From a virus (taxonomy: Duplodnaviria > Heunggongvirae > Uroviricota > Caudoviricetes), in the IMG/VR virus record IMGVR_UViG_2925908680_000001: 64,000 bases of DNA. One strand, 5' to 3'. Shown here one piece after another: positions 6,403 to 60,537 of the stretch. The notes beneath the pieces are model-generated. The model ran no database searches, had not been told where the DNA came from, and worked only from the letters and a program-made list of their open reading frames with translations. The position numbers and the translations under genes are program-made. Each line of letters begins with the position of its first letter. The stretch's first letter is position 1.

Positions 6403-7440
6403 TTACCAGAGCTTCGCGGCGTACTGCGTTTGGGGGAATGTGTATCCGTAACGTTCTTCGATTGCTTTGCCGTATTTTTTACGAGCTTCATTCAGTTTAA
6501 TGCCGGTCAGGTCGTCTCCAGAGGCCATCATTACGTCTAACAATTCCAGATCCATTTTATCTAGCCTTGCCATTGCTTCACGTGATGTACGTATCTTACG
6601 CTCAATGATATGGCGAATAGCCGGATCGGCATCCTCCAGCATCTTAGCGGATTTCTGCTTAAGGCTTTCATTGCGAATATCGATGTTCCTTAAGATGTAC
6701 GACTTCGCAACGTAGCTTGGCTGGTGTTTTTCTAGGTCACGAACACGATATAAGTTAAAATCGCCGAGAAGGCTGCAAGGTACCGATTCGACGCCAGAAT
6801 AAATTGTAATGCTCCGGCGTTCACCAACATTATTGACAACGGGGATCGTTGTCTTCGGTAGTCTTGCGAAAACCAATGCGCCATGTGCGCCAACTCTAAA
6901 GCGAGAAAGGGCATTGCTGCCTTCGATGTTTGTTGTCAGCACAACATCTGTATATGCCTCTTTACGCGCCCGGTAGATCTCGCCTTCAGGCTCAGCTTCA
7001 AAGAAGCGCTGTTCTTCTTCAAGAGCACCTACAATTTGAGAAAAAACCCTATTTTTCAGGCTTTTCTTTATGATTTTGTCGTATTTTTTGAGCAATTGTT
7101 CACGTGTAAATGTACGTGTTGTTGTAGCGCTTTGCACAACAACATGCGTGCTTTGATTGGTGTCCTCAATGATGAATGGGATCGGAGAATATACAGACTC
7201 AACAATGTTCGACGCTTTGCCGTCGGCATCGCGGCACATGTCAACGAAGGCTTTCCATTCAGCAAGACATTTTTCAGCTTCTTCTAATATGTTTTGGTCA
7301 TGCGTTAATGCAACATGGCGGAATTCCTCGCCAGCATAACTGGTATCATGGAAAACAGAGTTTGCGACCACCAGCTCTTTCCACCGTTCAGCGGTTTGCA
7401 GGAACCGTTTGTACTCTTTCTCGATCGACTTCTTACTCAT
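6403..7440 (-). CDS. Hypothetical 345-aa protein occupying the position of P1 c1/coi (candidate immunity repressor or accessory defence gene)
   Basis: ORF track; no motif recognised by eye; convergent with pacB, divergent from dre; operator-like motif 17-35 bp upstream of its start. Confidence 0.6.
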   Translation of the reverse strand: MSKKSIEKEYKRFLQTAERWKELVVANSVFHDTSYAGEEFRHVALTHDQNILEEAEKCLAEWKAFVDMCRDADGKASNIVESVYSPIPFIIEDTNQSTHVVVQSATTTRTFTREQLLKKYDKIIKKSLKNRVFSQIVGALEEEQRFFEAEPEGEIYRARKEAYTDVVLTTNIEGSNALSRFRVGAHGALVFARLPKTTIPVVNNVGERRSITIYSGVESVPCSLLGDFNLYRVRDLEKHQPSYVAKSYILRNIDIRNESLKQKSAKMLEDADPAIRHIIERKIRTSREAMARLDKMDLELLDVMMASGDDLTGIKLNEARKKYGKAIEERYGYTFPQTQYAAKLW

Positions 7441-19053: not shown

Positions 19054-19643
19054 TGGTTGCCTCCTTTGCGAAGCTGGGCGGCGAACTCGTTAAGTGATAT
19101 GTAGCAATCTCCAAATGTTAACGAACCGCTCGACCGCATATGCTCCATAGCCATCTCCACGCCCTGCGCCCGTACTTCAGCCAGGAAAGCGTCGGTAGCT
19201 GGCGTTTCGCTGTGGTGCAGGGCATCATTAATAATCATCGCAGCAACTCCGGCCTGCCCTGCATCCGTGACCGACACATGCTCAAGAGTTACGGCCATTG
19301 CGTGTTTCAGCCCAGCGTTCTCTGCCACCAGCGCAGCGAGATTAGTCTCAAGCTCTGAAATTCGGCACGTGGCATCAATATTTGTGTCCTCCAAGCACTT
19401 AATTTCACCAAGCAGCTCCAGTGCAACCTTTGGGTTGAACGCGGCAACATGACGAGCGTTGTTCTCTGCATTTTTCTGTCCATCAAAGCCGGTCCATTTG
19501 ATAACGTCTTCACATCGTTCATCACCGGGCGTGCGCACCGCATAAGTACCAGTATCCGTCGAAATAAATGCGACCCATTCGTCTGGTGTTGCCTTTTCTG
19601 CCGCCTCACGCAGTACCTGATAGTCAATTGTCATTCTCGCCAT
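19050..19643 (-). CDS. Ea22-like protein
   Basis: N-terminus MARMTIDYQVLREAAEKAT; C-terminal [16 protein letters not shown] module shared with ORF 23095-23706. Confidence 0.5.
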   Translation of the reverse strand: MARMTIDYQVLREAAEKATPDEWVAFISTDTGTYAVRTPGDERCEDVIKWTGFDGQKNAENNARHVAAFNPKVALELLGEIKCLEDTNIDATCRISELETNLAALVAENAGLKHAMAVTLEHVSVTDAGQAGVAAMIINDALHHSETPATDAFLAEVRAQGVEMAMEHMRSSGSLTFGDCYISLNEFAAQLRKGGNQ

Positions 19644-23098: not shown

Positions 23099-23706
23099 TG
23101 TTTCCCTCCCTTGCGAAGCTCTGCGGCAAAGTCAGTGGCATGTTCACCGAGTAGCTTCCAGTTATCGCGTATATCAGATGCAAATGACTGTTCAGATTTT
23201 GAGTTACATTTCTGTGCAAACATCTCCAATCCCTGCGCCCGGACTTCAGCCAGGAAAGCGTCGGTGGTTGGAGTCCCTTCAACCTTCAGCCCTATAGGGG
23301 CCAGGTAATACTTCAGCCCCGCATTCTCCGCCGCCAGCGACGCGCAATTACCCTCCAGCTCTGCAATGCGCTGTTTTGCAGCATCAAGTTCAATCGATAA
23401 TTTTTCCAACTGCTCTTTATGCTTCTTGTATTCCTGATATGCGTGCCAGGACTGACCTTTGCGCACACTATCAGTAATATCAGTAATCTGTTCTGGTGTT
23501 AGCGTGGTTAGTGGCTGTGCTGGGAAAATCAGCACTTTCCCGGAATCCCAATCAAAACCAGCGTGAATTGACTGAACCTCAACTGAGGGTGTTGAACCAA
23601 TGCTGCCAGGCGAATGAACAACGATCGTTACATCCATATCGCGACGATGGCTGTGGTTGTTGGACAAAATACGATTCACCAACTCAGAAAATTTGGAAAA
23701 TTTCAT
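23095..23706 (-). CDS. Ea22-like protein
   Basis: Start chosen at MKFSKF; coiled coil; C-terminal module shared with ORF 19050-19643. Confidence 0.5.
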
Positions 23707-25264: not shown

Positions 25265-25843
25265 ATGCAGAAACAGAGCTATTGGGAGAAACAGAGACAA
25301 AAAGCCATGCAAAAATTGGCTGACCCAGCCTGGCGAGAGGAACAAAGGGCAAAGCGCCTTCAACAAGCTCAACGCCAGCAGCAGCGAGCGAGAGAAAAAG
25401 CCGCATCGCCTGAATATCGGCAAAAGAAAATTGAAAAAGCAAAGCAATATGAACAGCGGAGAAAAGATAAAGCTGTATCCGCTCCGTCCAAAAAAACACG
25501 CACGTCACGCGGCCTGAAAGGCAGATCACTCACAGCCGATGAACGCCGGATACAGACCGCTATCGGTGCTCTCCCCTGCATTGCCTGCCATATTCACGGG
25601 CAACATAGCCCAGTGGTATCCCTGCACCATATCTTCGGGAGAACGGCAGAGAACGCACATAGATATGTCCTCCCTTTGTGTAAATGGCACCACCAGTACG
25701 CAGCGCCAGCCGAGGTCCGAGAACAATATCCCTGGCTGGTCCCTGTTCATGCTGACGGAAAAATAGGCGGAAAAGCAGATTTCATGCGGCACAATGCCGA
25801 TGAAATGACGTTGTATCAGATGGCGATTGAATTGATAAATTAG
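25265..25843 (+). CDS. ref: HNH-type endonuclease, Ref-like
   Basis: Basic low-complexity N-terminus then HNH-like core (CIACHIHG...HHIFGR...CKWHH). Confidence 0.6.
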   Translation: MQKQSYWEKQRQKAMQKLADPAWREEQRAKRLQQAQRQQQRAREKAASPEYRQKKIEKAKQYEQRRKDKAVSAPSKKTRTSRGLKGRSLTADERRIQTAIGALPCIACHIHGQHSPVVSLHHIFGRTAENAHRYVLPLCKWHHQYAAPAEVREQYPWLVPVHADGKIGGKADFMRHNADEMTLYQMAIELIN

Positions 25844-25857: not shown

Positions 25858-26174
25858 AAGTTGAATTGTAAATTTCTCCGATGTACATTCACTACCGATT
25901 GGCACACCGGTCAACTTTTTGAGACAAACTGTTTAGTTTTTCGTATTATTGCCGCCGCTATACCTATGGCGGTGCAATATAGGTGGCTGAAAAGCCCCCG
26001 TTGACTCACGGTGTTCCAGCCTTTATTGCGCCGCCACCAGACCGTGGAACAGTCGATGGCGGCTCCGAAAGCAAGGAGTCACCACACTATGAACAGCTAC
26101 TGTCTTTTCCCATCACTCGTTGTCCGCCACTCACGCGATAATCTGCATTCTTTACTCGCGCTGGGGGTGTCAAA

Positions 26175-26342
26175 ATGACCGTTCGCTACCTCAACTTTCA
26201 AATCCAGAACATCACTGGCGGTTGCTATGACTGGTTTGTCACTCTCGGAAAAGAAGTGATCACCGGGAAGCTGGATGAAGTGAAAGCTAAAGCAATGGCC
26301 TACGCCTGCAAGCAAGCCCGGAAGAAATCCGCCAAAGCATAA
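26175..26342 (+). CDS. Small hypothetical protein (55 aa)
   Basis: Hand-translated MTVRYLNFQIQNITGGCYDWFVTLGKEVITGKLDEVKAKAMAYACKQARKKSAKA; RBS ggggtg; coupled to a 29-codon upstream ORF (26089-26178). Confidence 0.3.
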   Translation: MTVRYLNFQIQNITGGCYDWFVTLGKEVITGKLDEVKAKAMAYACKQARKKSAKA

Positions 26343-26446
26343 AATACTGACTGTTGCGCCCTGGCATTATCGTGGGGTATATTTCTACGGCACCTTAGAA
26401 AAACGGGTGCCGGGATTGGAACCCCGGATAATGCAAAAGGCGACAC

Positions 26447-26470
26447 AGACGCCGAAAGCGTCTTTTTTTG
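26447..26470 (+). terminator. Rho-independent terminator
   Basis: gacgc-cgaaa-gcgtc followed by ttttttt. Confidence 0.65.
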
Positions 26471-26499
26471 TGTCATGCCATCGCACAGCCATACGTAGC

Positions 26500-26625
26500 G
26501 TTTAGCTCAGAGATCAATGGTAGTGCTGGCTGGGCTGCCGAAAGGCAGGCCGGTTCCCTTTTGCGCCGGTAGTTCCAACCCAGTCAGTGCTACCGCCATT
26601 GAGATTGGAACCTCACGCGGTAGCT
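26500..26625 (+). ncRNA. Putative c4-like antisense RNA / target region of immunity module 1
   Basis: Structured leader upstream of icd; ggttccaa segments complementary to ttggaacc near the icd RBS; by analogy to P1 immI. Confidence 0.3.
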
Positions 26626-26654
26626 CCTTAAATTAGCAAAAGGAGGCTGCCAAT

Positions 26655-26870
26655 ATGGCTACTATCCCTACCCCAACTCATTCTGAATTTATCTGGCGTT
26701 TCTATTCCTGCCAAAAACACCTGTATATCTGCGTCATGGCTGCTACCGAAGCAGAAGCTCGTTCATACCTTCCTGAAGAACCCTGCATTTTTGCCGCACG
26801 CTTCACTCTTGATGCGATGGAGATCCTAAATTACTGGAATCTGCCAATGAACTGCGTGGAGGTGCACTGA
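26655..26870 (+). CDS. icd: Icd-like host cell division inhibitor
   Basis: 71 aa; immediately precedes and is coupled to the antirepressor gene (TGATG overlap), as in P1 immI. Confidence 0.65.
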   Translation: MATIPTPTHSEFIWRFYSCQKHLYICVMAATEAEARSYLPEEPCIFAARFTLDAMEILNYWNLPMNCVEVH

Positions 26871-27811
26871 TGAATCTGTCCATCTCTCAAAAAGCGACAA
26901 TGACCAGTATTGAGATCGCGGAACTGGTAGGTAAGCGTCATGATAATGTGAAGCGTACCATTGAAGTATTAACTAAAGGTGGTGTCATTCAATTTCCTCA
27001 AATTGAGGAAATTGAAAATAAACAATCAGTTGGCCCTCGTCGATTTTCCAAGGCTTACATATTTGAAGGCGAACAAGGAAAACGAGACAGCATCATTGTC
27101 GTCGCGCAGCTCTCTCCGGAATTCACCGCCCGGCTGGTGGACCGCTGGCGCGAACTGGAGAATGCCCGGGTACAGTTAAAATCAAAAGCCGAAATTCTGG
27201 CTGAAATGGCGCAAATGCATCTTGAGCATGAACGCCGGATCAACGCCGTAAATGCCCAGGTAGCCGAGGTATCAGCACAAGTATCGATGGTCGCTGAAAC
27301 ACTCGAGCAAATCAAGAAAGGCAATATTCCGGAAGGCTACATTGGCTACCGCCAGCTGGCGGCGAAATGTGGCCTGACTGAAGCCAAATGTCGCAACCTG
27401 GTTAACGCTTTCCGGATTCCCACCGATACGCATGAGTTTTTAACTCCAGATGGTTTGCTTGCGCGACGCTCCATTGTGGCCCTGGTCCCCTTCCGGAAAG
27501 CCTTTAAGCAGGTGATGTCGGAGGCAGAACCACGCAATAAACGCTGGTATCATCCAAAGATGGGGATGTTTCAGGCAATCCACCATCCTGTGCCTGAAAG
27601 CCCAAAGGATAATCTGTCACTACATACCGTCAGAGAGAAGATCAGGACTGGATACGCAACAGTGTGTCGTCGTTCTTCCTGGCCTGAAGGTATATGGGTG
27701 TGGCCCGAAGGTGGATCACGAAAGCACTGGCGCACCATCCGTGACGGGAAAATCCATGCTATTGATTTAGCTCCAGAGGATGTTATTGCTATGGACTGGA
27801 TTGTTAGTTAA
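26870..27811 (+). CDS. ant: Antirepressor (Ant-like) with Rha-type N-terminal domain
   Basis: N-terminus MTSIEIAELVGKRHDNVKRTIE; 313 aa; paralog at 45623-46549. Confidence 0.7.
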   Translation: MNLSISQKATMTSIEIAELVGKRHDNVKRTIEVLTKGGVIQFPQIEEIENKQSVGPRRFSKAYIFEGEQGKRDSIIVVAQLSPEFTARLVDRWRELENARVQLKSKAEILAEMAQMHLEHERRINAVNAQVAEVSAQVSMVAETLEQIKKGNIPEGYIGYRQLAAKCGLTEAKCRNLVNAFRIPTDTHEFLTPDGLLARRSIVALVPFRKAFKQVMSEAEPRNKRWYHPKMGMFQAIHHPVPESPKDNLSLHTVREKIRTGYATVCRRSSWPEGIWVWPEGGSRKHWRTIRDGKIHAIDLAPEDVIAMDWIVS

Positions 27812-27828
27812 ATGCTGCATCCCCGGCG

Positions 27829-27849
27829 ACGCCGGGGATTTAACTGCCA
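27829..27849 (+). terminator. Hairpin terminator after ant
   Basis: atccccggc-gac-gccggggat. Confidence 0.5.
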
Positions 27850-27870
27850 AATAATCGGATTATCCGCACG

Positions 27871-28182
27871 ATGAAAAAAATAGATTTCACTTATTCTGCC
27901 GCCACACTTGAGCGGCGCTTCACCCTCATTAGAGAGTTGGAACTGTCAAAAGTCTGGTATCAAATCCTACTGGATGAAGAGTTTTCACTGATGGTTATAG
28001 CAGAAAAATTGGCTATGCCTAATGATCGGCACAAGGTCATAGCCAGCCTCGATCTGGTGACAAACAGATACTGGGAAACAGAGGAACTACATGAGGCGGG
28101 AGTAATTCGTGACCTGATGGAGAATTCCGTTCCCCGCCGCTATCGTGCAGGGAACGGCATCTCCGTGGTTAAAGGTGTTTAA
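27871..28182 (+). CDS. Hypothetical protein
   Basis: ORF track. Confidence 0.45.
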   Translation: MKKIDFTYSAATLERRFTLIRELELSKVWYQILLDEEFSLMVIAEKLAMPNDRHKVIASLDLVTNRYWETEELHEAGVIRDLMENSVPRRYRAGNGISVVKGV

Positions 28183-38574: not shown

Positions 38575-40236
38575 TTAACCTAACTTCGCCCAGGTATCAC
38601 GCAGCCCAACGGTGCGGTTAAATACCGGTTTTTCCGCCGTAGAATGGCGGCTGTCGAGGCAGAAATAACCTTCACGCTCAAACTGGAATGCTTTACCCGC
38701 TACCGCTTCTTTCAGCGACGGTTCAGCAAAACCCTGTTTGATCACCAGCGATTCCGGGTTAATCACCGACAGGAAATCATCCGCAGCACCTGGGTTCGGC
38801 ACGCTGAACAGACGATCGTACAGGCGGATTTCAACCGGCAGCGCATGTGCCGCGCTCACCCAGTGAATAACGCCTTTCACTTTACGACCATCTGCCGGAT
38901 CTTTGCTTAAGGTGTCGGCGTCATAAGTACAGAAGATGGTGGTGATATTGCCTTCGGCATCTTTCTCCACGCGTTCAGCCTTAATGACGTAAGCATTACG
39001 CAGACGCACTTCTTTACCCAGCACCAGACGTTTGTACTGCTTGTTAGCTTCTTCTCGGAAATCGGCGCGGTCGATCCAAATCTCACCGCTAAACGGCACC
39101 TGACGGTTACCCATTTCCGGTTTGTTTGGATGGTTCGGCATGGTGACCATTTCGCCTTCGCCCTGATAGTTTTCGATGACCAGTTTCACCGGATCGATAA
39201 CCGCCATTGCGCGCGGCGCATTTTCGTTGAGATCTTCACGGATGCAGGATTCCAGCGACGCCATCTCAATGGTGTTGTCCTGCTTGGTCACGCCGATGCG
39301 TTTGCAGAACTCACGAATAGAAGCCGCAGTGTAACCACGACGACGCAGACCGGAAATGGTCGGCATACGCGGGTCATCCCAGCCTTCAACGTGCTTGTCG
39401 GTCACCAGCAGGTTCAGCTTACGCTTGGACATCACAGTGTATTCCAGATTCAGGCGCGAGAATTCGTACTGGCGCGGGTGAACAGGAATGGTGATGTTGT
39501 CCAGCACCCAGTCGTAAAGGCGACGGTTGTCCTGGAACTCAAGCGTACACAGAGAGTGCGTAATACCTTCCAGCGCATCGCTGATGCAGTGGGTGAAGTC
39601 GTACATCGGGTAGATGCACCACTTGTTGCCAGTCTGGTGGTGTTCAGCAAACTTAATGCGATACAGCACCGGATCGCGCATCACGATAAACGGCGAAGCC
39701 ATGTCGATTTTCGCACGCAGGCAGGCTTTACCTTCTTCAAAACCACCGGCACGCATTTTTTCGAACAGCGCCAGGTTCTCTTCAACGCTGCGATCGCGGT
39801 ACGGGCTGTTTTTACCCGGCTGCGTCAGGGTGCCGCGGTATTCGCGGATCTGTTCCGGCGTCAGTTCGTCAACATACGCCAGGCCTTTGTTGATCAGTTC
39901 AACAGCATAGGCGTGGAGCTGATCAAAATAATCGGAGGAGTAACGGATGTTGCCAGACCAGTGAAAACCTAACCATTCAACGTCGTTTTTAATCGACTCG
40001 ACGTACTCGATATCTTCTTTTACCGGGTTAGTGTCGTCGAAACGCAGGTTGCACTGGCCTTTATAGTCCTGGGCGATCCCGAAGTTCAGGCAGATAGATT
40101 TCGCATGACCAATATGCAGATAGCCATTCGGTTCCGGCGGGAAACGGGTATGTACTGTGGTGTGCTTACCACTGGCCAGATCTTCATCGATGATCTGACG
40201 AATAAAGTTAGTCGGGCGGGCTTCTGCCTCACTCAT
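38575..40236 (-). CDS. glnS: Glutaminyl-tRNA synthetase (GlnRS), near-identical to host E. coli protein
   Basis: 553-aa translation matches E. coli GlnRS over essentially the full length from memory ([25 protein letters not shown]..., HIGH and VMSKR class I motifs); only the extreme C-terminus seems to differ. Confidence 0.95.
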
Positions 40237-44881: not shown

Positions 44882-45041
44882 TTACTCCCCTTGTTTAGTG
44901 CCAGAGGACACGCCAGTGCTGTTAAACAAGTATCCGACATACGCTGAACAGTTATTCAGCACGATCGACGAATGCAACCAACGAAACGCACTGAATAACC
45001 AAAGAAACAGGGAGATTTGGGAAGGGGACAGGCGGCAGTGA
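44715..45041 (+). CDS. Rz1-like o-spanin lipoprotein (overlapped architecture)
   Basis: Signal peptide with lipobox LSGC; starts inside Rz in another frame and extends beyond it; RBS gaggaaag. Confidence 0.5.
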   Translation: MKSLALKIRCAVLGLTMCVYLMTLSGCSGNGQKPSTSVPVKITVEATSKPQANLIDYSPCLVPEDTPVLLNKYPTYAEQLFSTIDECNQRNALNNQRNREIWEGDRRQ

Positions 45042-45068
45042 GCTTCACAAAAGCTACATAATTATTTT

Positions 45069-45081
45069 GCGTTAGAAAAAT
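45069..45081 (-). promoter_or_regulatory. Operator-like motif (atttttctaacgc on the reverse strand)
   Basis: Recurring TTTCTAACA-like motif downstream of the spanins. Confidence 0.3.
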
Positions 45082-45289
45082 AATTTGAATTTTCGAACAT
45101 AAATAATAAAATAAATCATCAAAAATTTGATGTTGATCTTCCATGTTTTCAGGCTTATATTCACGCCGTCGTAGCAAATTCTGCGACCGGGTTTAGCAGC
45201 CTGAATGATTGTGCGGACAACCGCAGATTTCCGATATTGCGGTATTTTTGTGTCCGTAAACCGCGTTACGCCCGAATTATGGTGGGGCG

Positions 45290-45400
45290 TGATGGGGAGG
45301 CTTCGGCCTGCTGGTTTCACAATCGCCAGTCTGCTAACCCCGTCACGTCCTGCCACCCGTTTAGCAGCGGGTAGCAGGTTGTTAAACCTGATTGTGAGGC
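45290..45400 (+). ncRNA. Putative c4-like antisense RNA / target region of immunity module 2
   Basis: tcacaatc (45317-45324) complementary to gattgtga (45390-45397) at the icd RBS; ctgctaacc (45331-45339) complementary to gtttagcag (45359-45367). Confidence 0.35.
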
Positions 45401-45407
45401 CGTAACT

Positions 45408-45623
45408 ATGGTTAATGCCAATCCTTGCCCTCGCCCGGAATTTATCTGGCGCTTTTATTCCTGCACAAAACACACCTACATCAGCGTAATGGCAGCTACT
45501 GAGGCTGAAGCGCGTTCATTTCTTCCTACAGATCCGTGCATTTTTGCCGCTCGCTTTAAACCCGATGCTCTGGACGTTTTGACCTACTGGAACCGCCCAA
45601 TGAACTGCGTGGAGGTGCACTGA
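45408..45623 (+). CDS. icd: Icd-like host cell division inhibitor (second copy)
   Basis: 71 aa, about 75 percent identical by eye to ORF 26655-26870; coupled to ant. Confidence 0.65.
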   Translation: MVNANPCPRPEFIWRFYSCTKHTYISVMAATEAEARSFLPTDPCIFAARFKPDALDVLTYWNRPMNCVEVH

Positions 45624-46549
45624 TGAATCTGTCCATCTCTCAAAAAGTGACAATGACAAGTATTGAGATCGCGGAGCTGGTGGGAAGTCGTCATGACAAG
45701 GTGAAACAATCTATTGAACGACTGGCGGGACGAGGTGTAATAGCTTTTCCCCCAATGGGGGAGAAGCCCACCGCAGGCCGCCCGGCGAGCTATTACGTCT
45801 TTGAAGGCGAGCAAGGCAAGCGCGACAGCATTGTTGTCGTCGCACAGCTTTCTCCCGAATTTACCGCCCGACTGGTGGACCGCTGGCGCGAACTGGAGAG
45901 TGCCAAAGTACAGTTAAAATCAAAGGCCGAAATCCTGGCCGAAATGGCGCAAATGCATCTTGAGCATGAACGCCGGATCAACGCCGTAAATGCCCAGGTA
46001 GCCGAGGTATCAGCACAAGTGTCCAGGGTCACTGAAACACTTGAGCAGATCAAGAAAGGCAATATTCCGGAAGGCTACATTGGCTACCGCCAGCTGGCGG
46101 CGAAATGTGGCCTGACTGAAGCCAAATGTCGCAACCTGGTTAACGCTTTCCGGATTCCCACCGATACGCATGAGTTTTTAACTCCAGATGGTTTGCTTGC
46201 GCGACGCTCCATTGTGGCCCTGGCCCCCTTCCGGAAAGCCTTTAAGCAGGTGATGTCGGAGGCAGAACCACGCAATAAACGCTGGTATCATCCAAAGATG
46301 GGGATGTTTCAGGCAATCCACCATCCTGTGCCTGAAAGCCCAAAGGATAATCTGTCACTACATACCGTCAGAGAGAAGATCAGGACTGGATACGCAACAG
46401 TGTGTCGTCGTTCTTCCTGGCCTGAAGGTATATGGGTGTGGCCCGAAGGTGGATCACGAAAGCACTGGCGCACTATCCGAGATGGGAAAATCCATGCTAT
46501 TGATTTAGCTCCAGAGGATATTGTTGCTACGGACTGGATTGTTAGTTAA
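45623..46549 (+). CDS. ant: Antirepressor (Ant-like), second copy
   Basis: 308 aa; C-terminal two-thirds near-identical to ORF 26870-27811, N-terminal Rha-type region diverged. Confidence 0.7.
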   Translation: MNLSISQKVTMTSIEIAELVGSRHDKVKQSIERLAGRGVIAFPPMGEKPTAGRPASYYVFEGEQGKRDSIVVVAQLSPEFTARLVDRWRELESAKVQLKSKAEILAEMAQMHLEHERRINAVNAQVAEVSAQVSRVTETLEQIKKGNIPEGYIGYRQLAAKCGLTEAKCRNLVNAFRIPTDTHEFLTPDGLLARRSIVALAPFRKAFKQVMSEAEPRNKRWYHPKMGMFQAIHHPVPESPKDNLSLHTVREKIRTGYATVCRRSSWPEGIWVWPEGGSRKHWRTIRDGKIHAIDLAPEDIVATDWIVS

Positions 46550-46557
46550 TTACTGTT

Positions 46558-46580
46558 GCCCCGGCCAGGCCGGGGCTTTC
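46558..46580. terminator. GC-rich hairpin between convergent ant and ORF 46585-46989
   Basis: gccccggcc / ggccggggc followed by tttc. Confidence 0.5.
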
Positions 46581-46584
46581 GTGA

Positions 46585-46989
46585 CTAAAAATCTGTTCGC
46601 TGTCGCCATGCGTTTTTTAACTCAGGAATATCCGCCATTTCAATTAACTTGCGAAGTCCAGCACTGACTTTCCCATTGCCAACCATAGCAAGCCAATCTC
46701 TTACTGCTTTCGGCATGTAGAGCGTTGCAGTTACCGGCTCTTCAACCCTGGCAGGACATCCGCATACAGGCCATTTAATTGATTCCATAACTTCGGATGC
46801 CGGGGTGAGGGCGGGGACATTGAGTATATCTCTACCAGAAAACTGGATAACGATCCGTTCAGCGAGCGAGAGTATCTCACTTTCGGCAAGAATTGATGCC
46901 AACTGCGCCTCAACAAGAAAGCGACTTGTTGTGTTCAGAGAGTGGCTCTTAGCGCCATTTTTATACGAAACAAAGATTCGATACGCCAT
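46585..46989 (-). CDS. Hypothetical protein
   Basis: ORF track; operator-like motif directly upstream. Confidence 0.45.
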   Translation of the reverse strand: MAYRIFVSYKNGAKSHSLNTTSRFLVEAQLASILAESEILSLAERIVIQFSGRDILNVPALTPASEVMESIKWPVCGCPARVEEPVTATLYMPKAVRDWLAMVGNGKVSAGLRKLIEMADIPELKNAWRQRTDF

Positions 46990-59600: not shown

Positions 59601-60537
59601 ATCTTTTGGATTTAAAAAAGCTTCTCAAGTGGCTGATATCGCAACAGCCATACAACAAAAACGCACTGTTAATCACGATACAGAAATCATTGATCTACTT
59701 CCGGGAGATCAAGTATCCCCTTCTACTCCGAAAACTCCACAGCAGGAGCAGGCTCTAGCAATCAGCCAGGCTATGGAGGGCTTTTCGTCTGCAGCGCCAG
59801 CACCGAAAACTCCACAGCAGGAGCAGGCTCTAGCAATCAACCAGGCTATGGCGGGAGCTGCGCCAGTAGTTACCTCTGGAAAACGAACTATCACGGCACC
59901 AAGTGATGTGCAGATTTATGACAACGGCTACAAGGTGGTTACAGGTGAGGATAAGAGCTTCTTTGGTTCGCTATTTGATTCCACGGTGTCAGGGCTTAAA
60001 CAGACAGGAACCGCAGTAATTCCTGCCGTTGGCGATAACCTTTCACGACTTGTTGGGGGGATTGATAGTACAGGGATATTGAACGATCTTGTAATGCAGT
60101 CTACTGGACAGAATAGTGCGATTGCGCGAGCTATTAGCCCATTAACAAGAAATGTTGGAGACTGGCTGAATGGGGGGATTCAACAAACCGCTAATAGCAT
60201 TAGGGGAATAGCAACTGGTGCCAATAACGCCATATTTGGCTCTGCTTCAGCTGTGCAAGAACCTTTTCTTGCTATGCCACCACAGCTTCCTACTGTAACA
60301 GATCTCGCACGAAGCGGAATAAGACAACCATTAACTACTGACACTATAAATAACGATCCTGCTATGTTGAAGGCGCTGGATAACATCTGCTCTATCCTGA
60401 ACGATCTTCTGAATGTGAACAAGAACAATACAAAAGGCGATCCGGATAAGGTTGTCAAAACATCGCAGCCGCAACCGCGACCACGTGCTAGCACAACTAT
60501 TAATGACCCGTCGCTGGATGCTCTGCTTGAGGATTAA
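56602..60537 (+). CDS. Tape-measure / injection protein candidate (Sit-like, 1311 aa)
   Basis: Very large protein preceding baseplate-like genes; low-complexity Ala/Lys-rich regions; internal tandem repeat; true start uncertain. Confidence 0.55.
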   Translation: MDISPLATLNNYRNGEHSICQKPWKKNTKLKPGNVDRAGKREVILKENKDRIAIIDAIQEASTNELKALAEVKDAILSGASTITQQDERQGRVSNRLSRRHKEYEQSTSDSVRDVQTNPYKKRLPAKKERAPINQTVDRAIVATNTPESVRSVQSRQTIRKSEGFIPVAANSAPLEPQPPQSLKGPLRDSNGRFVSQKSNEDVARKKELQNARKADAKLQAGFLRKLGSIMGVDGNQSSSEESLTNAAGVGAGGPLWMAARGMYDITKEITGKAESLKELVEKGKKETSTSKAISPVITYPAAVNSQKATSAKAFNNAVETKSAQAVEEQTKILQTNDNKIIDGLENVSDEIVKLRKSVSSGNKFGLSDLWKNRASRRNKINIGDQTGKNKRNKSKRKGRNLGKKALSAGEKVAAGSAAAGTGVGAAKVVKNKISKPKDVSTISDTSKGIAKETKNTAKAVKSAGVVAEDATIKTGEAIAKKKTESVALKSAAKIGVKSAASTAARAVPIIGSLAMAGYDAIDGYTDTEAQKAAFGLSDDDAVSEQQKTAYATANVLDMGGLVSGATNLIGKGISALGFERAGEKLQNFDTGDIARGVNGAVDITKSVFGSLKDTFLSTDENTKQVKKAVEDGTKKTVDAIHSLGEQLQGGRNGEDGVGEHGYTSPTEFSAPANNTIAADLNIGGSNAKNRNYRNNNLGNLVFANQEGATLESPNAKGEQRFARFNTPEEGIRALANQVSSYYNGTSAAAGYQKLQTVSSIISKWAPPNENNTNQYIDNVSKYLGVSPNEKIDVSNPEVMTQLVRAIATKEGGNPAVNNEFIKNALGAFNTNTGRWEGQFSDETLARINKIQKENGGQLIARDSQYSVGRKVKYANGKSPAQPVLNAVPTATQQPIEVAQHAQAVKKPQKTGNQSQPINPEIVDVNTGSPSSLLERLIAINDSGVGNLFGGAATSLAGTSLGLIKDFASATSFGSISSLSEKAKGMDQALTEKISGLTGKSFGFKKASQVADIATAIQQKRTVNHDTEIIDLLPGDQVSPSTPKTPQQEQALAISQAMEGFSSAAPAPKTPQQEQALAINQAMAGAAPVVTSGKRTITAPSDVQIYDNGYKVVTGEDKSFFGSLFDSTVSGLKQTGTAVIPAVGDNLSRLVGGIDSTGILNDLVMQSTGQNSAIARAISPLTRNVGDWLNGGIQQTANSIRGIATGANNAIFGSASAVQEPFLAMPPQLPTVTDLARSGIRQPLTTDTINNDPAMLKALDNICSILNDLLNVNKNNTKGDPDKVVKTSQPQPRPRASTTINDPSLDALLED
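59728..59877. repeat. 75-bp in-frame tandem duplication inside the tape-measure gene
   Basis: ccgaaaactccacagcaggagcaggctctagcaatca(g/a)ccaggctatgg... repeated; encodes PKTPQQEQALAI(S/N)QAM twice. Confidence 0.8.

Follow-up and report, generated by a model that had tools for sequence, protein, structure and literature searches.

Heteroimmunity between the phages P1 and P7 is the textbook case of an antisense RNA that sets the immunity specificity of a phage, and it is known as a story of two alleles. Citron and Schuster are said to have described this antisense heteroimmunity for the immI operon (c4-icd-ant1/2) of P1 and P7. The heteroimmunity mediated by the C4 RNAs of P1 and P7 is established (PMC12197685). 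In Gifsy-1, experiments have shown how IsrK works and that it is linked to prophage induction: its short form activates translation of a small open reading frame (ORF) downstream and of the anti-repressor-like gene coupled to it, and promotes induction of the prophage (PMC4825925). Earlier authors have remarked on further c4/icd/ant regions in plasmids of the D6-like and P1-like kinds (PMC6799933; PMC6906374) and on the ant insertion in P1-like plasmids such as RCS47 (PMC6906374). Here we analyze a stretch of 64,000 nucleotides (nt) from a virus of the Caudoviricetes (IMG/VR record IMGVR_UViG_2925908680_000001), referred to as the window, in which ORF listing and repeat finding revealed two icd-ant pairs, module 1 and module 2, separated by 18.7 kb that hold tail, partition and glnS genes.

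By megablast, the region of module 1 matched phage D6 (91.8% identity over 26000-28095), and the whole window aligned with D6 at 86-98% identity (D6 coordinates 7800 -> 1 -> 91159 -> 37371). We call the replicon D6-like because it is 91.8-97.9% identical to phage D6; going by this resemblance, the window comes from a D6-like plasmid prophage related to P1. Positions 25000-48000 are covered to 80% or more by 86 PLSDB plasmids of Escherichia, Salmonella and Shigella. As a whole, the observations below are likely to be best explained by a D6-like prophage that carries two autonomous, antisense-locked cassettes of the immI type, and probably a third, with module 2 as an accessory cassette whose ant has been overwritten by module-1-type sequence.

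The annotated P1 record served as a guide to module anatomy, and the leaders were aligned against it. Both modules have one and the same architecture: a promoter, a leader with a1 and b1 sites, a C4 RNA recognized by Rfam, a2 and b2 sites, icd, and a coupled ant. This agrees with the initial annotation, which had read the two as immI-like paralogs; its start coordinates, however, omitted the promoters and the a1/b1 leaders, and module 1 begins at ~26354 and module 2 at ~45133. The system belongs to the known P1/P7 immI and IsrK kind. Shared with the immI operons of P1 and P7 are the order of the parts, the Rfam family of C4, the complementarity of a1/b1 and a2/b2 to the a' and b' segments of C4, the position of b2 on the icd ribosome site, the Icd-like small protein, and the icd stop codon that overlaps the ant start (as TGATG in both modules, at 26870 and 45623). 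The differences are that the effector here is a Rha-family protein with two predicted winged-helix-like units and no BLASTP similarity to Ant1/2; that the window is without a P1-type (Op51-type) C1 operator; that a genome has several cassettes, each at its own locus; and that kilA-repL does not come after modules 1 and 2.

Module 1 lies on the plus strand and opens with a putative promoter (26354-26383; TTGCGC, 18-nt spacer, TATATT), read from the sequence, which ends 7 nt before the match to an isrK-type leader (26390-26468; Rfam RF01394, 62.5 bits against a gathering score of 50). The a1 (TTGGAAC, 26416-26422) and b1 (GCAAAAGG, 26433-26440) sites of this leader are complementary to a' and b' of the module's own C4, and a terminator scan placed an intrinsic (Rho-independent) terminator behind them, with a stem-loop at 26447-26463 followed by a T7 run. 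The C4 antisense RNA occupies 26513-26600 (RF01695, 76.7 bits against a gathering score of 45) and has a minimum free energy (MFE) fold of -46.4 kcal/mol, with b' (CCTTTTGC) in the loop of hairpin 2 and a' (GTTCCAA) in the 3' junction. Exact complements of a' and b' follow within 26605-26643, as a2 (26605-26611) and b2 (26636-26643), the latter overlapping the icd Shine-Dalgarno sequence AAGGAGG. The coding part of the module consists of icd1 (26655-26870), which encodes an Icd-like protein of 71 amino acids (aa) (NCBIfam NF033153, E 3.3e-13, above the cutoff; phrog_1426), and ant1 (26870-27811), which encodes a Rha-family putative anti-repressor of 313 aa (Pfam PF09669; phrog_63 'anti-repressor Ant', E 2e-61).

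Two described loci resemble module 1. Its leader matches isrK of the Salmonella Gifsy-1 isrK-orf45-anrP locus (STnc1160) and ends in an intrinsic terminator, and the layout of leader, stable-RNA region, small ORF and coupled anti-repressor-like gene is common to module 1 (not module 2) and that locus. Unlike in Gifsy-1, the module 1 leader is followed by an RNA that clearly belongs to the C4 family and has explicit a/b complementarity, a 71-aa Icd-like ORF takes the place of orf45, and the element is a plasmid prophage. The ant insertion between pacB and c1 in RCS47, JL22 and pTZ20_1P likewise has an isrK-type leader (88-95% identical), a C4, a small ORF and an ant, but its Ant has 371 aa and is of the Roi/Ant type, it lies at another locus, and its a code is TTGAGAC. 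At 26517-26636, exactly on top of the module 1 C4 gene, RefSeq places an ORF for an 'ash family protein' of 39 aa (PF10554, Phage_ASH), and it does likewise in L007 (2018-2137) and L025 (1148-1267); here an RNA gene has probably been taken for a protein-coding one. RefSeq labels C4 genes as 'ash family protein' ORFs, and ant carries only the label 'Rha family transcriptional regulator'.

Module 2, also on the plus strand, is closer to P1 and P7 themselves: its promoter, leader and C4 are 90-99% identical to theirs, and its code is that of P7. The promoter (45133-45161; TTGATC, 17-nt spacer, TATATT) is homologous to the P1 promoter P1c4 (P51b), and the leader (45155-45213, with the Rfam match at 45155-45207; RF03163, 54.4 bits, above the gathering score) is of the c4-a1b1 type and has no terminator. 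Its a1 (TTAGCAG, 45193-45199) and b1 (GATTGTG, 45207-45213) are complementary to the module's own C4, which lies at 45275-45360 (RF01695, 70.5 bits against a gathering score of 45), folds at an MFE of -45.3 kcal/mol, and has b' = TCACAATC and a' = CTGCTAA. Positions 45281-45357 equal the P7 C4 at 77 of 77 positions, and all four target sites are also those of P7. The targets a2 (45361-45367) and b2 (45390-45397), together spanning 45361-45397, are exact complements of the module's own a' and b', and b2 overlaps the icd2 ribosome site GTGAGG; in the two modules, the b2/ribosome sites GCAAAAGGAGG and GATTGTGAGG are located 7-9 nt ahead of the icd ATG. The 71-aa icd2 (45408-45623; NF033153, E 4e-12, above the cutoff), whose stop overlaps the ant2 start, is 98-99% identical to the module-2 icd of other plasmids. 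The 308-aa ant2 (45623-46549) combines a different N-domain allele with a core identical to that of ant1 and a module-2-type tail. An apparent GC-rich hairpin at 46558-46576 (no strand assigned), read off directly, would mark the end of the cassette; it is kept at the end of the ETEC1732 cassette described below, and it also faces a converging 134-aa gene at 46585-46989 on the minus strand.

The two C4 RNAs use unrelated recognition codes: TTGGAAC/GCAAAAGG in module 1 and TTAGCAG/GATTGTGA, the exact P7 code, in module 2. Exact complements of a' and b', 7-8 nt long, occur at four of four sites within each module and at none across modules. Calculated duplex energies agree, as the module 1 targets pair at -20.9 kcal/mol with their own C4 and at -12.8 kcal/mol with that of the other module, and the corresponding values for the module 2 targets are -20.5 and -11.7 kcal/mol; overall, own C4 gives about -21 kcal/mol and non-cognate C4 -9 to -13 kcal/mol. 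Since the codes are unrelated, neither RNA is expected to lock the other cassette. The proposal that two copies could confer dual anti-immunity specificity therefore holds in part: the RNA locks are orthogonal, and that of module 2 is P7's, but the C-terminal two-thirds of the two Ant proteins are the same and different repressor targets are not indicated.

In a census, we scanned viral contigs with the conserved C4 stems and left the recognition positions free; the figures are lower bounds. Loops and targets covary in every C4 element examined. The P1-type family comprised two a-variants and at least 12 b-variants in at least 18 combinations, with a1, b1 and a2 matching the loops in 59/59 distinct contexts among the matches listed. 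In the isrK-type family there were 2 x 2 variants in all four combinations, and the match was full in 29 of the 31 contexts among the matches listed. At least 13 of the 33 contigs of 80 kb or more among the matches listed carried two or more distinct codes and at least three carried three codes; the same code twice in one genome was not seen among these 33 contigs. The P7 code was the commonest among the census matches listed. A more far-reaching reading, which we offer tentatively, is that C4 codes constitute a combinatorial, horizontally exchanged RNA 'immunity barcode' common to the P1-like and D6-like families, with up to three orthogonal promoter-to-terminator cassettes stacked per genome, gene conversion keeping Ant uniform, and the cassettes together acting as an OR-gated trigger for superinfection or induction.

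The coding parts of the two modules have diverged unevenly. The icd genes are 74.5% identical in DNA, close to the 75% given by the initial annotation, and 79% identical in protein. Identity between ant1 and ant2 is 96% over the first 50 nt, drops to 40-56% at nt ~100-190, in keeping with the diverged 5' regions already remarked, recovers to 84-92% up to position 27214, and is 98-100% from there on. Over the 1157 aligned columns between the icd start and the ant stop, the modules differ at 152, yet 425 nt of ant consist of identical runs of 249 and 175 nt on either side of a single mismatch; random placement of the differences reached the observed runs in 0 of 100,000 trials (P<1e-5 under uniform divergence). 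The homogenized tract spans 27311-27771 in ant1 and 46049-46509 in ant2 (both plus strand), with one mismatch in 461 nt. Near-identity had been claimed for the last ~550 bp of the two genes; it does set in at ~27214, but the tract is internal, and the last ~40 nt ahead of the stop codons diverge again. Synonymous divergence (dS) between ant1 and ant2 is saturated in aa 22-62 (~2.2), lower in aa 63-102 (0.65), and down to 0.07 in aa 103-313, 10 to 30 times less than before. Uniform divergence across the paralogs is ruled out by the identity profile, the run-length test and dS. That recombination or gene conversion produced the near-identical 3' two-thirds of the ant genes is well supported.

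The C-terminal part of Ant is conserved in its own right: over all alleles of D6-like plasmids, the C-terminal two-thirds have a mean column identity of 87% and are mostly invariant after aa 143, and all ant C-terminal copies are at least 93% identical in DNA. One might thus propose an old duplication followed by strong purifying selection on this domain, with no gene conversion. However, the synonymous sites are homogenized too, and the drop of dS in aa 103-313 means that constraint at the protein level cannot explain the pattern. Nor is homogenization universal, as the two C-domains of CP020051 differ at 34 sites and those of the window at 16, with one difference in 461 nt; private variants are shared only inside the lineage; and the pair of ant genes in ETEC1732 shows 4 differences in 942 nt next to icd genes that are 73% identical. 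This explanation is already contradicted by these observations, and we consider it very improbable. Repeats of ~0.6 kb at 97% identity can also confuse short-read assemblers, and one of the copies might then be an assembly duplication or chimera. However, identity between the leaders is no more than 40-55%, and each flank is unique and corresponds to D6 backbone. Moreover, exact Ant2 is found on 17 contigs of independent assemblies (12 of them 50-200 kb), always in the upfB-to-capsid-gene context and always with the P7 code, and among them the complete record CP031767.1 is identical to the window at 2527/2527 nt. Assembly duplication, which the initial annotation had named as a possible undoing of its claim, is ruled out on these grounds; the chance of such an artefact is negligible.

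Variable sites bear on the direction and the timing of the exchange. Over C-domain positions 136-596, ant2 carries module-1-type bases in the variable-site tables, and its 3' tail stays module-2 type. The C-domain variants 236T and 273A were seen only in W_1/L007-type module 1 copies and in all copies of the window's module-2 lineage. This distribution suggests that module 1 sequence was copied into module 2 in an ancestor of the module-2 lineage, and that exchange runs mainly that way. In a short patch at ~45941-46020 (sites 45985, 45988 and 46012), the window's ant2 equals ant1; this is specific to the window replicon and CP031767, and sister contigs differ from both at the three sites. Judged by these sites, the patch around 45985-46012 is a later, shorter conversion than the lineage-wide tract. 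Recombination, which the initial annotation had put down to recent gene conversion, is therefore supported, but not as a single recent event: an older, lineage-wide tract is joined by a later, replicon-specific patch. As far as sequence comparison can tell, homogenization of ant recurs independently in other plasmids, namely in ETEC1732 and in CP042620, whose module-2 ant carries the window's module-1 N-domain.

Module 2 as a whole is a mosaic. On the left, its flank agrees with other module-2 plasmids. The closest match is P7 for 45150-45400 (95-99%), module 2 of the CP021537 type for 45400-45550 (98-99%), and pSa1423 module 2 for the ant2 N-domain (94-98%), where pYU39_89 module 1 comes next (76-88%). 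Further on, no difference separates 46050-46400 from module 1 of the window, or 46400-46600 from CP043746 module 2. Deletion between the two repeats, also raised in the initial annotation, is possible in principle and would remove partition and tail genes, but a synthetic junction of module 1 through ant with the module-2 downstream flank had no full-length match in 72,556 plasmids.

Homology to D6 stops at 45026 and restarts at 46601, and D6, pYU39_89 and CP066033 have an unrelated gene, orf53, at the module-2 site; module 2 (45027-46600, plus strand) is therefore an accessory insertion that replaces D6 orf53. D6 and D6-like plasmids such as pYU39_89 share module 1, which is orf83/orf82 of D6, but D6, pYU39_89 and CP066033 lack module 2, and the combination of the P7 code with the Rha N-domain of the window is rare (17 contigs). 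Exact module 2 was absent from 5426 complete E. coli genomes. In other plasmids, the module-2 site is taken by a cassette whose b code differs and whose ant has an N-domain of the ORF6N type. In ETEC1732 (NZ_CP122828.1, 31200-32760), a cassette of this kind with yet another b code, ACGAATGA, lies between the plasmid replication initiator and tail-tube genes, and D6-type genes are kept at the upfB-gene 23 site; the locus of the cassette therefore varies from plasmid to plasmid. The unit common to this cassette and the window's module 2 is 45071-46579, that is, ~1.5 kb from just upstream of the promoter to the hairpin after ant.

P1 has a single immI, as the initial annotation stated, but against this background two copies are not unusual in the lineage. 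D6 has two icd-ant modules: orf83/82 (module 1) and orf19/18 next to repL, the latter with its own C4 and c4-a1b1 leader, in a region outside the window. The P1-like phages RCS47 and JL22 have two cassettes each, the extra one being of the isrK type and lying between pacB and c1, and the complete D6-like plasmid NZ_CP020051.1 bears three cassettes, module 2 among them, each with a code of its own. The repL-adjacent cassette of NZ_CP020051.1 has the exact P1 code TTGACAG/GTTAGTGA (L226 ~975, minus strand; L009), and both P1 and P7 codes therefore circulate on D6 backbones. As relatives of D6 normally carry a further cassette next to repL, the window's replicon is likely to have a third one there, outside the window.

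The exact P7 identity of the C4 and all the targets of module 2, on a backbone that is D6-like and without P1-type C1 operators, invites another account of why module 2 is kept. It may be kept mainly for its RNA: a P7-code C4 acting in trans would silence the ant of P7-type, P1-like phage-plasmids that share the host, as cross-family interference or defence, and Ant2 would be a dispensable passenger. The frequency of the P7 code in the census would fit, as would CP042620.1 (L016, 1386-1815), where a frameshift cuts the module-2 ant to 142 aa and leaves C4 and icd intact; the frameshift reflects either faulty sequencing or the decay of an ant gene whose cassette retains its RNA. However, Ant2 is intact and identical on the 17 contigs, repeated conversion keeps it matched to a functional ant, and silencing an incoming ant alone does not stop infection in a cell without that phage's C1. 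We regard a role of the RNA alone as rather improbable.

What the ant genes encode is central to any reading of the cassettes. The exact Ant1 protein was found in at least 90 index blocks, and Ant is 67% identical to the shorter, repL-side Ant of D6 over aa 1-237. An AlphaFold model of moderate confidence (predicted local distance difference test score, pLDDT, 69; predicted template modeling score, pTM, 0.30) predicts a winged helix at aa 10-66, the second helix and wing of which would form the variable segment, followed by a long helix (106-149), another winged-helix-like unit (157-204) and an end rich in beta structure. The proteins are modular: at least six allelic types of the variable segment (aa 22-62) and two types of linker are combined in many ways with the A/B alleles and tail variants of the C-terminal domain. 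In the variable N-domain, the ratio of nonsynonymous to synonymous divergence (dN/dS) is 0.2-0.75 with synonymous sites saturated, and the N-domain alleles look old rather than fast-evolving.

By position, coupling, membership in anti-repressor families (PHROGs) and the precedent of Gifsy-1, Ant would be an anti-repressor, and we infer that it antagonizes the D6-type C1 repressor. The presumed target is the c1 homolog at 6403-7440 on the minus strand, a prophage repressor gene with an ORF of 345 aa that maps to D6 orf1, annotated as 'similar to P1 gene C1'. The 'ant' products could instead be Rha-type DNA-binding regulators or host-toxic proteins with other targets, so that the cassettes control something besides immunity. 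In line with this, the sole Pfam match of Ant is Phage_pRha (PF09669), no NCBIfam domain beyond Rha was found, and each of more than 5000 homologs bears the database name 'Rha family transcriptional regulator'. The two winged-helix-like units of the model, its best, non-significant fold matches to MarR-type proteins, and the lack of similarity to P1 Ant1 fit as well, and in Gifsy-1 the output of AnrP is antiterminator expression. Yet the position of the gene and its coupling behind c4-icd are exactly as in P1 and P7, and expression of AnrP induces the Gifsy-1 prophage. Ant also matches several 'anti-repressor' PHROGs in addition to phrog_63, a multi-domain family that also contains P1 Ant1 and is the only link between Ant and P1 Ant. 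A role apart from immunity seems to us unlikely.

Several points weigh against the account of the window as a prophage with antisense-locked immI-type cassettes. The function of D6-type cassettes is read from sequence alone. Homology of Ant to P1 Ant1/Ant2 was rejected at the BLASTP level (pairwise E 0.2), a search of the PDB returned no sequence relatives of Ant, and Foldseek gave no significant match for the Ant model (best E 0.06, to MarR-type DNA binders). A scan of the whole window with the P1-type C1 operator consensus ATTGCTCTAATAAATTT gave no match at up to three mismatches; C1 regulation therefore differs from that of P1, and the D6-type C1 repressor presumably recognizes another operator. 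The putative module 1 promoter scores under the threshold of the consensus scan and is weak by consensus, and the third cassette is predicted from relatives only. Finally, the direction of conversion is drawn from ~25 copies, which do not include module 1 of the sister contigs that carry Ant2.

With these reservations, the cassettes may be pictured as follows. Each would be a single transcription unit with a constitutive promoter, an a1/b1 leader, a C4 that is cut from the same transcript, a2/b2, icd, and the coupled ant. In the prophage state, each C4 would pair with its own a2/b2 and block translation of icd, and through coupling and polarity this block would reach the expression of ant. The leader of module 1 ends in a terminator, and a short a1/b1 RNA is therefore possible; such an RNA from the IsrK-type leader would, as in Gifsy-1, titrate C4 or open the mRNA and so turn the cassette on. 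Exchange between ant genes would be anchored in the conserved region of icd end and ant start and in the conserved C-terminal domain, and homologous recombination of a module-1-type ant into module 2 would explain the near-identical 3' two-thirds. The effector part of Ant would be kept uniform while the RNA locks diversify. A prophage with two or three codes could then silence the ant of incoming relatives, and an infecting phage would need just one cassette that the resident cannot lock to make Ant.

Other features of the window lie apart from this account. Directly upstream of module 1, at 25265-25843, is a gene for a Ref-family RecA-dependent nuclease (PF16786, E 1e-34); Ref enhances RecA-dependent recombination in P1. 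The segment between the modules includes, at 38575-40236 on the minus strand, a 553-aa ORF that corresponds to the glutaminyl-tRNA synthetase (glnS) gene of D6-like phage-plasmids, and four transfer RNA (tRNA) genes lie at 97-1580 of the window. Two 53-nt direct repeats (59728-59780 and 59803-59855), 96% identical and 75 nt apart, sit inside a sit-like (tail injection transglycosylase) gene, in a stretch without D6 alignment; Tandem Repeats Finder reported nothing at 59728-59855. A 54-nt direct repeat with 89% identity (19152-19205 and 23221-23274), its copies 4 kb apart in the region of ead/Ea22-like genes, may mark another paralog pair.

In the literature that we searched, the mobility of cassettes between loci, a combinatorial code, the stacking of orthogonal codes and the recurrent homogenization of ant are not described. 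For the locus in the window itself, the result is mainly a clean annotation, as compared with the 'ash family protein' and Rha labels of RefSeq. Together with its relatives, the window presents the lock-and-key device as a mobile cassette that occurs in many code combinations, with several stacked per genome, and recombination both shuffles the locks and homogenizes the effector. If the barcode reading is true, the cassettes would set who superinfects or induces whom among phage-plasmids with common enterobacterial hosts, and, with the exact P7 code sitting on a D6 backbone, the regulation of P1-like and D6-like families would be in direct cross-talk. In E. coli and Salmonella, phage-plasmids often carry resistance genes, and, if the function proposed here holds, their codes would predict which of them coexist, exclude or induce one another.

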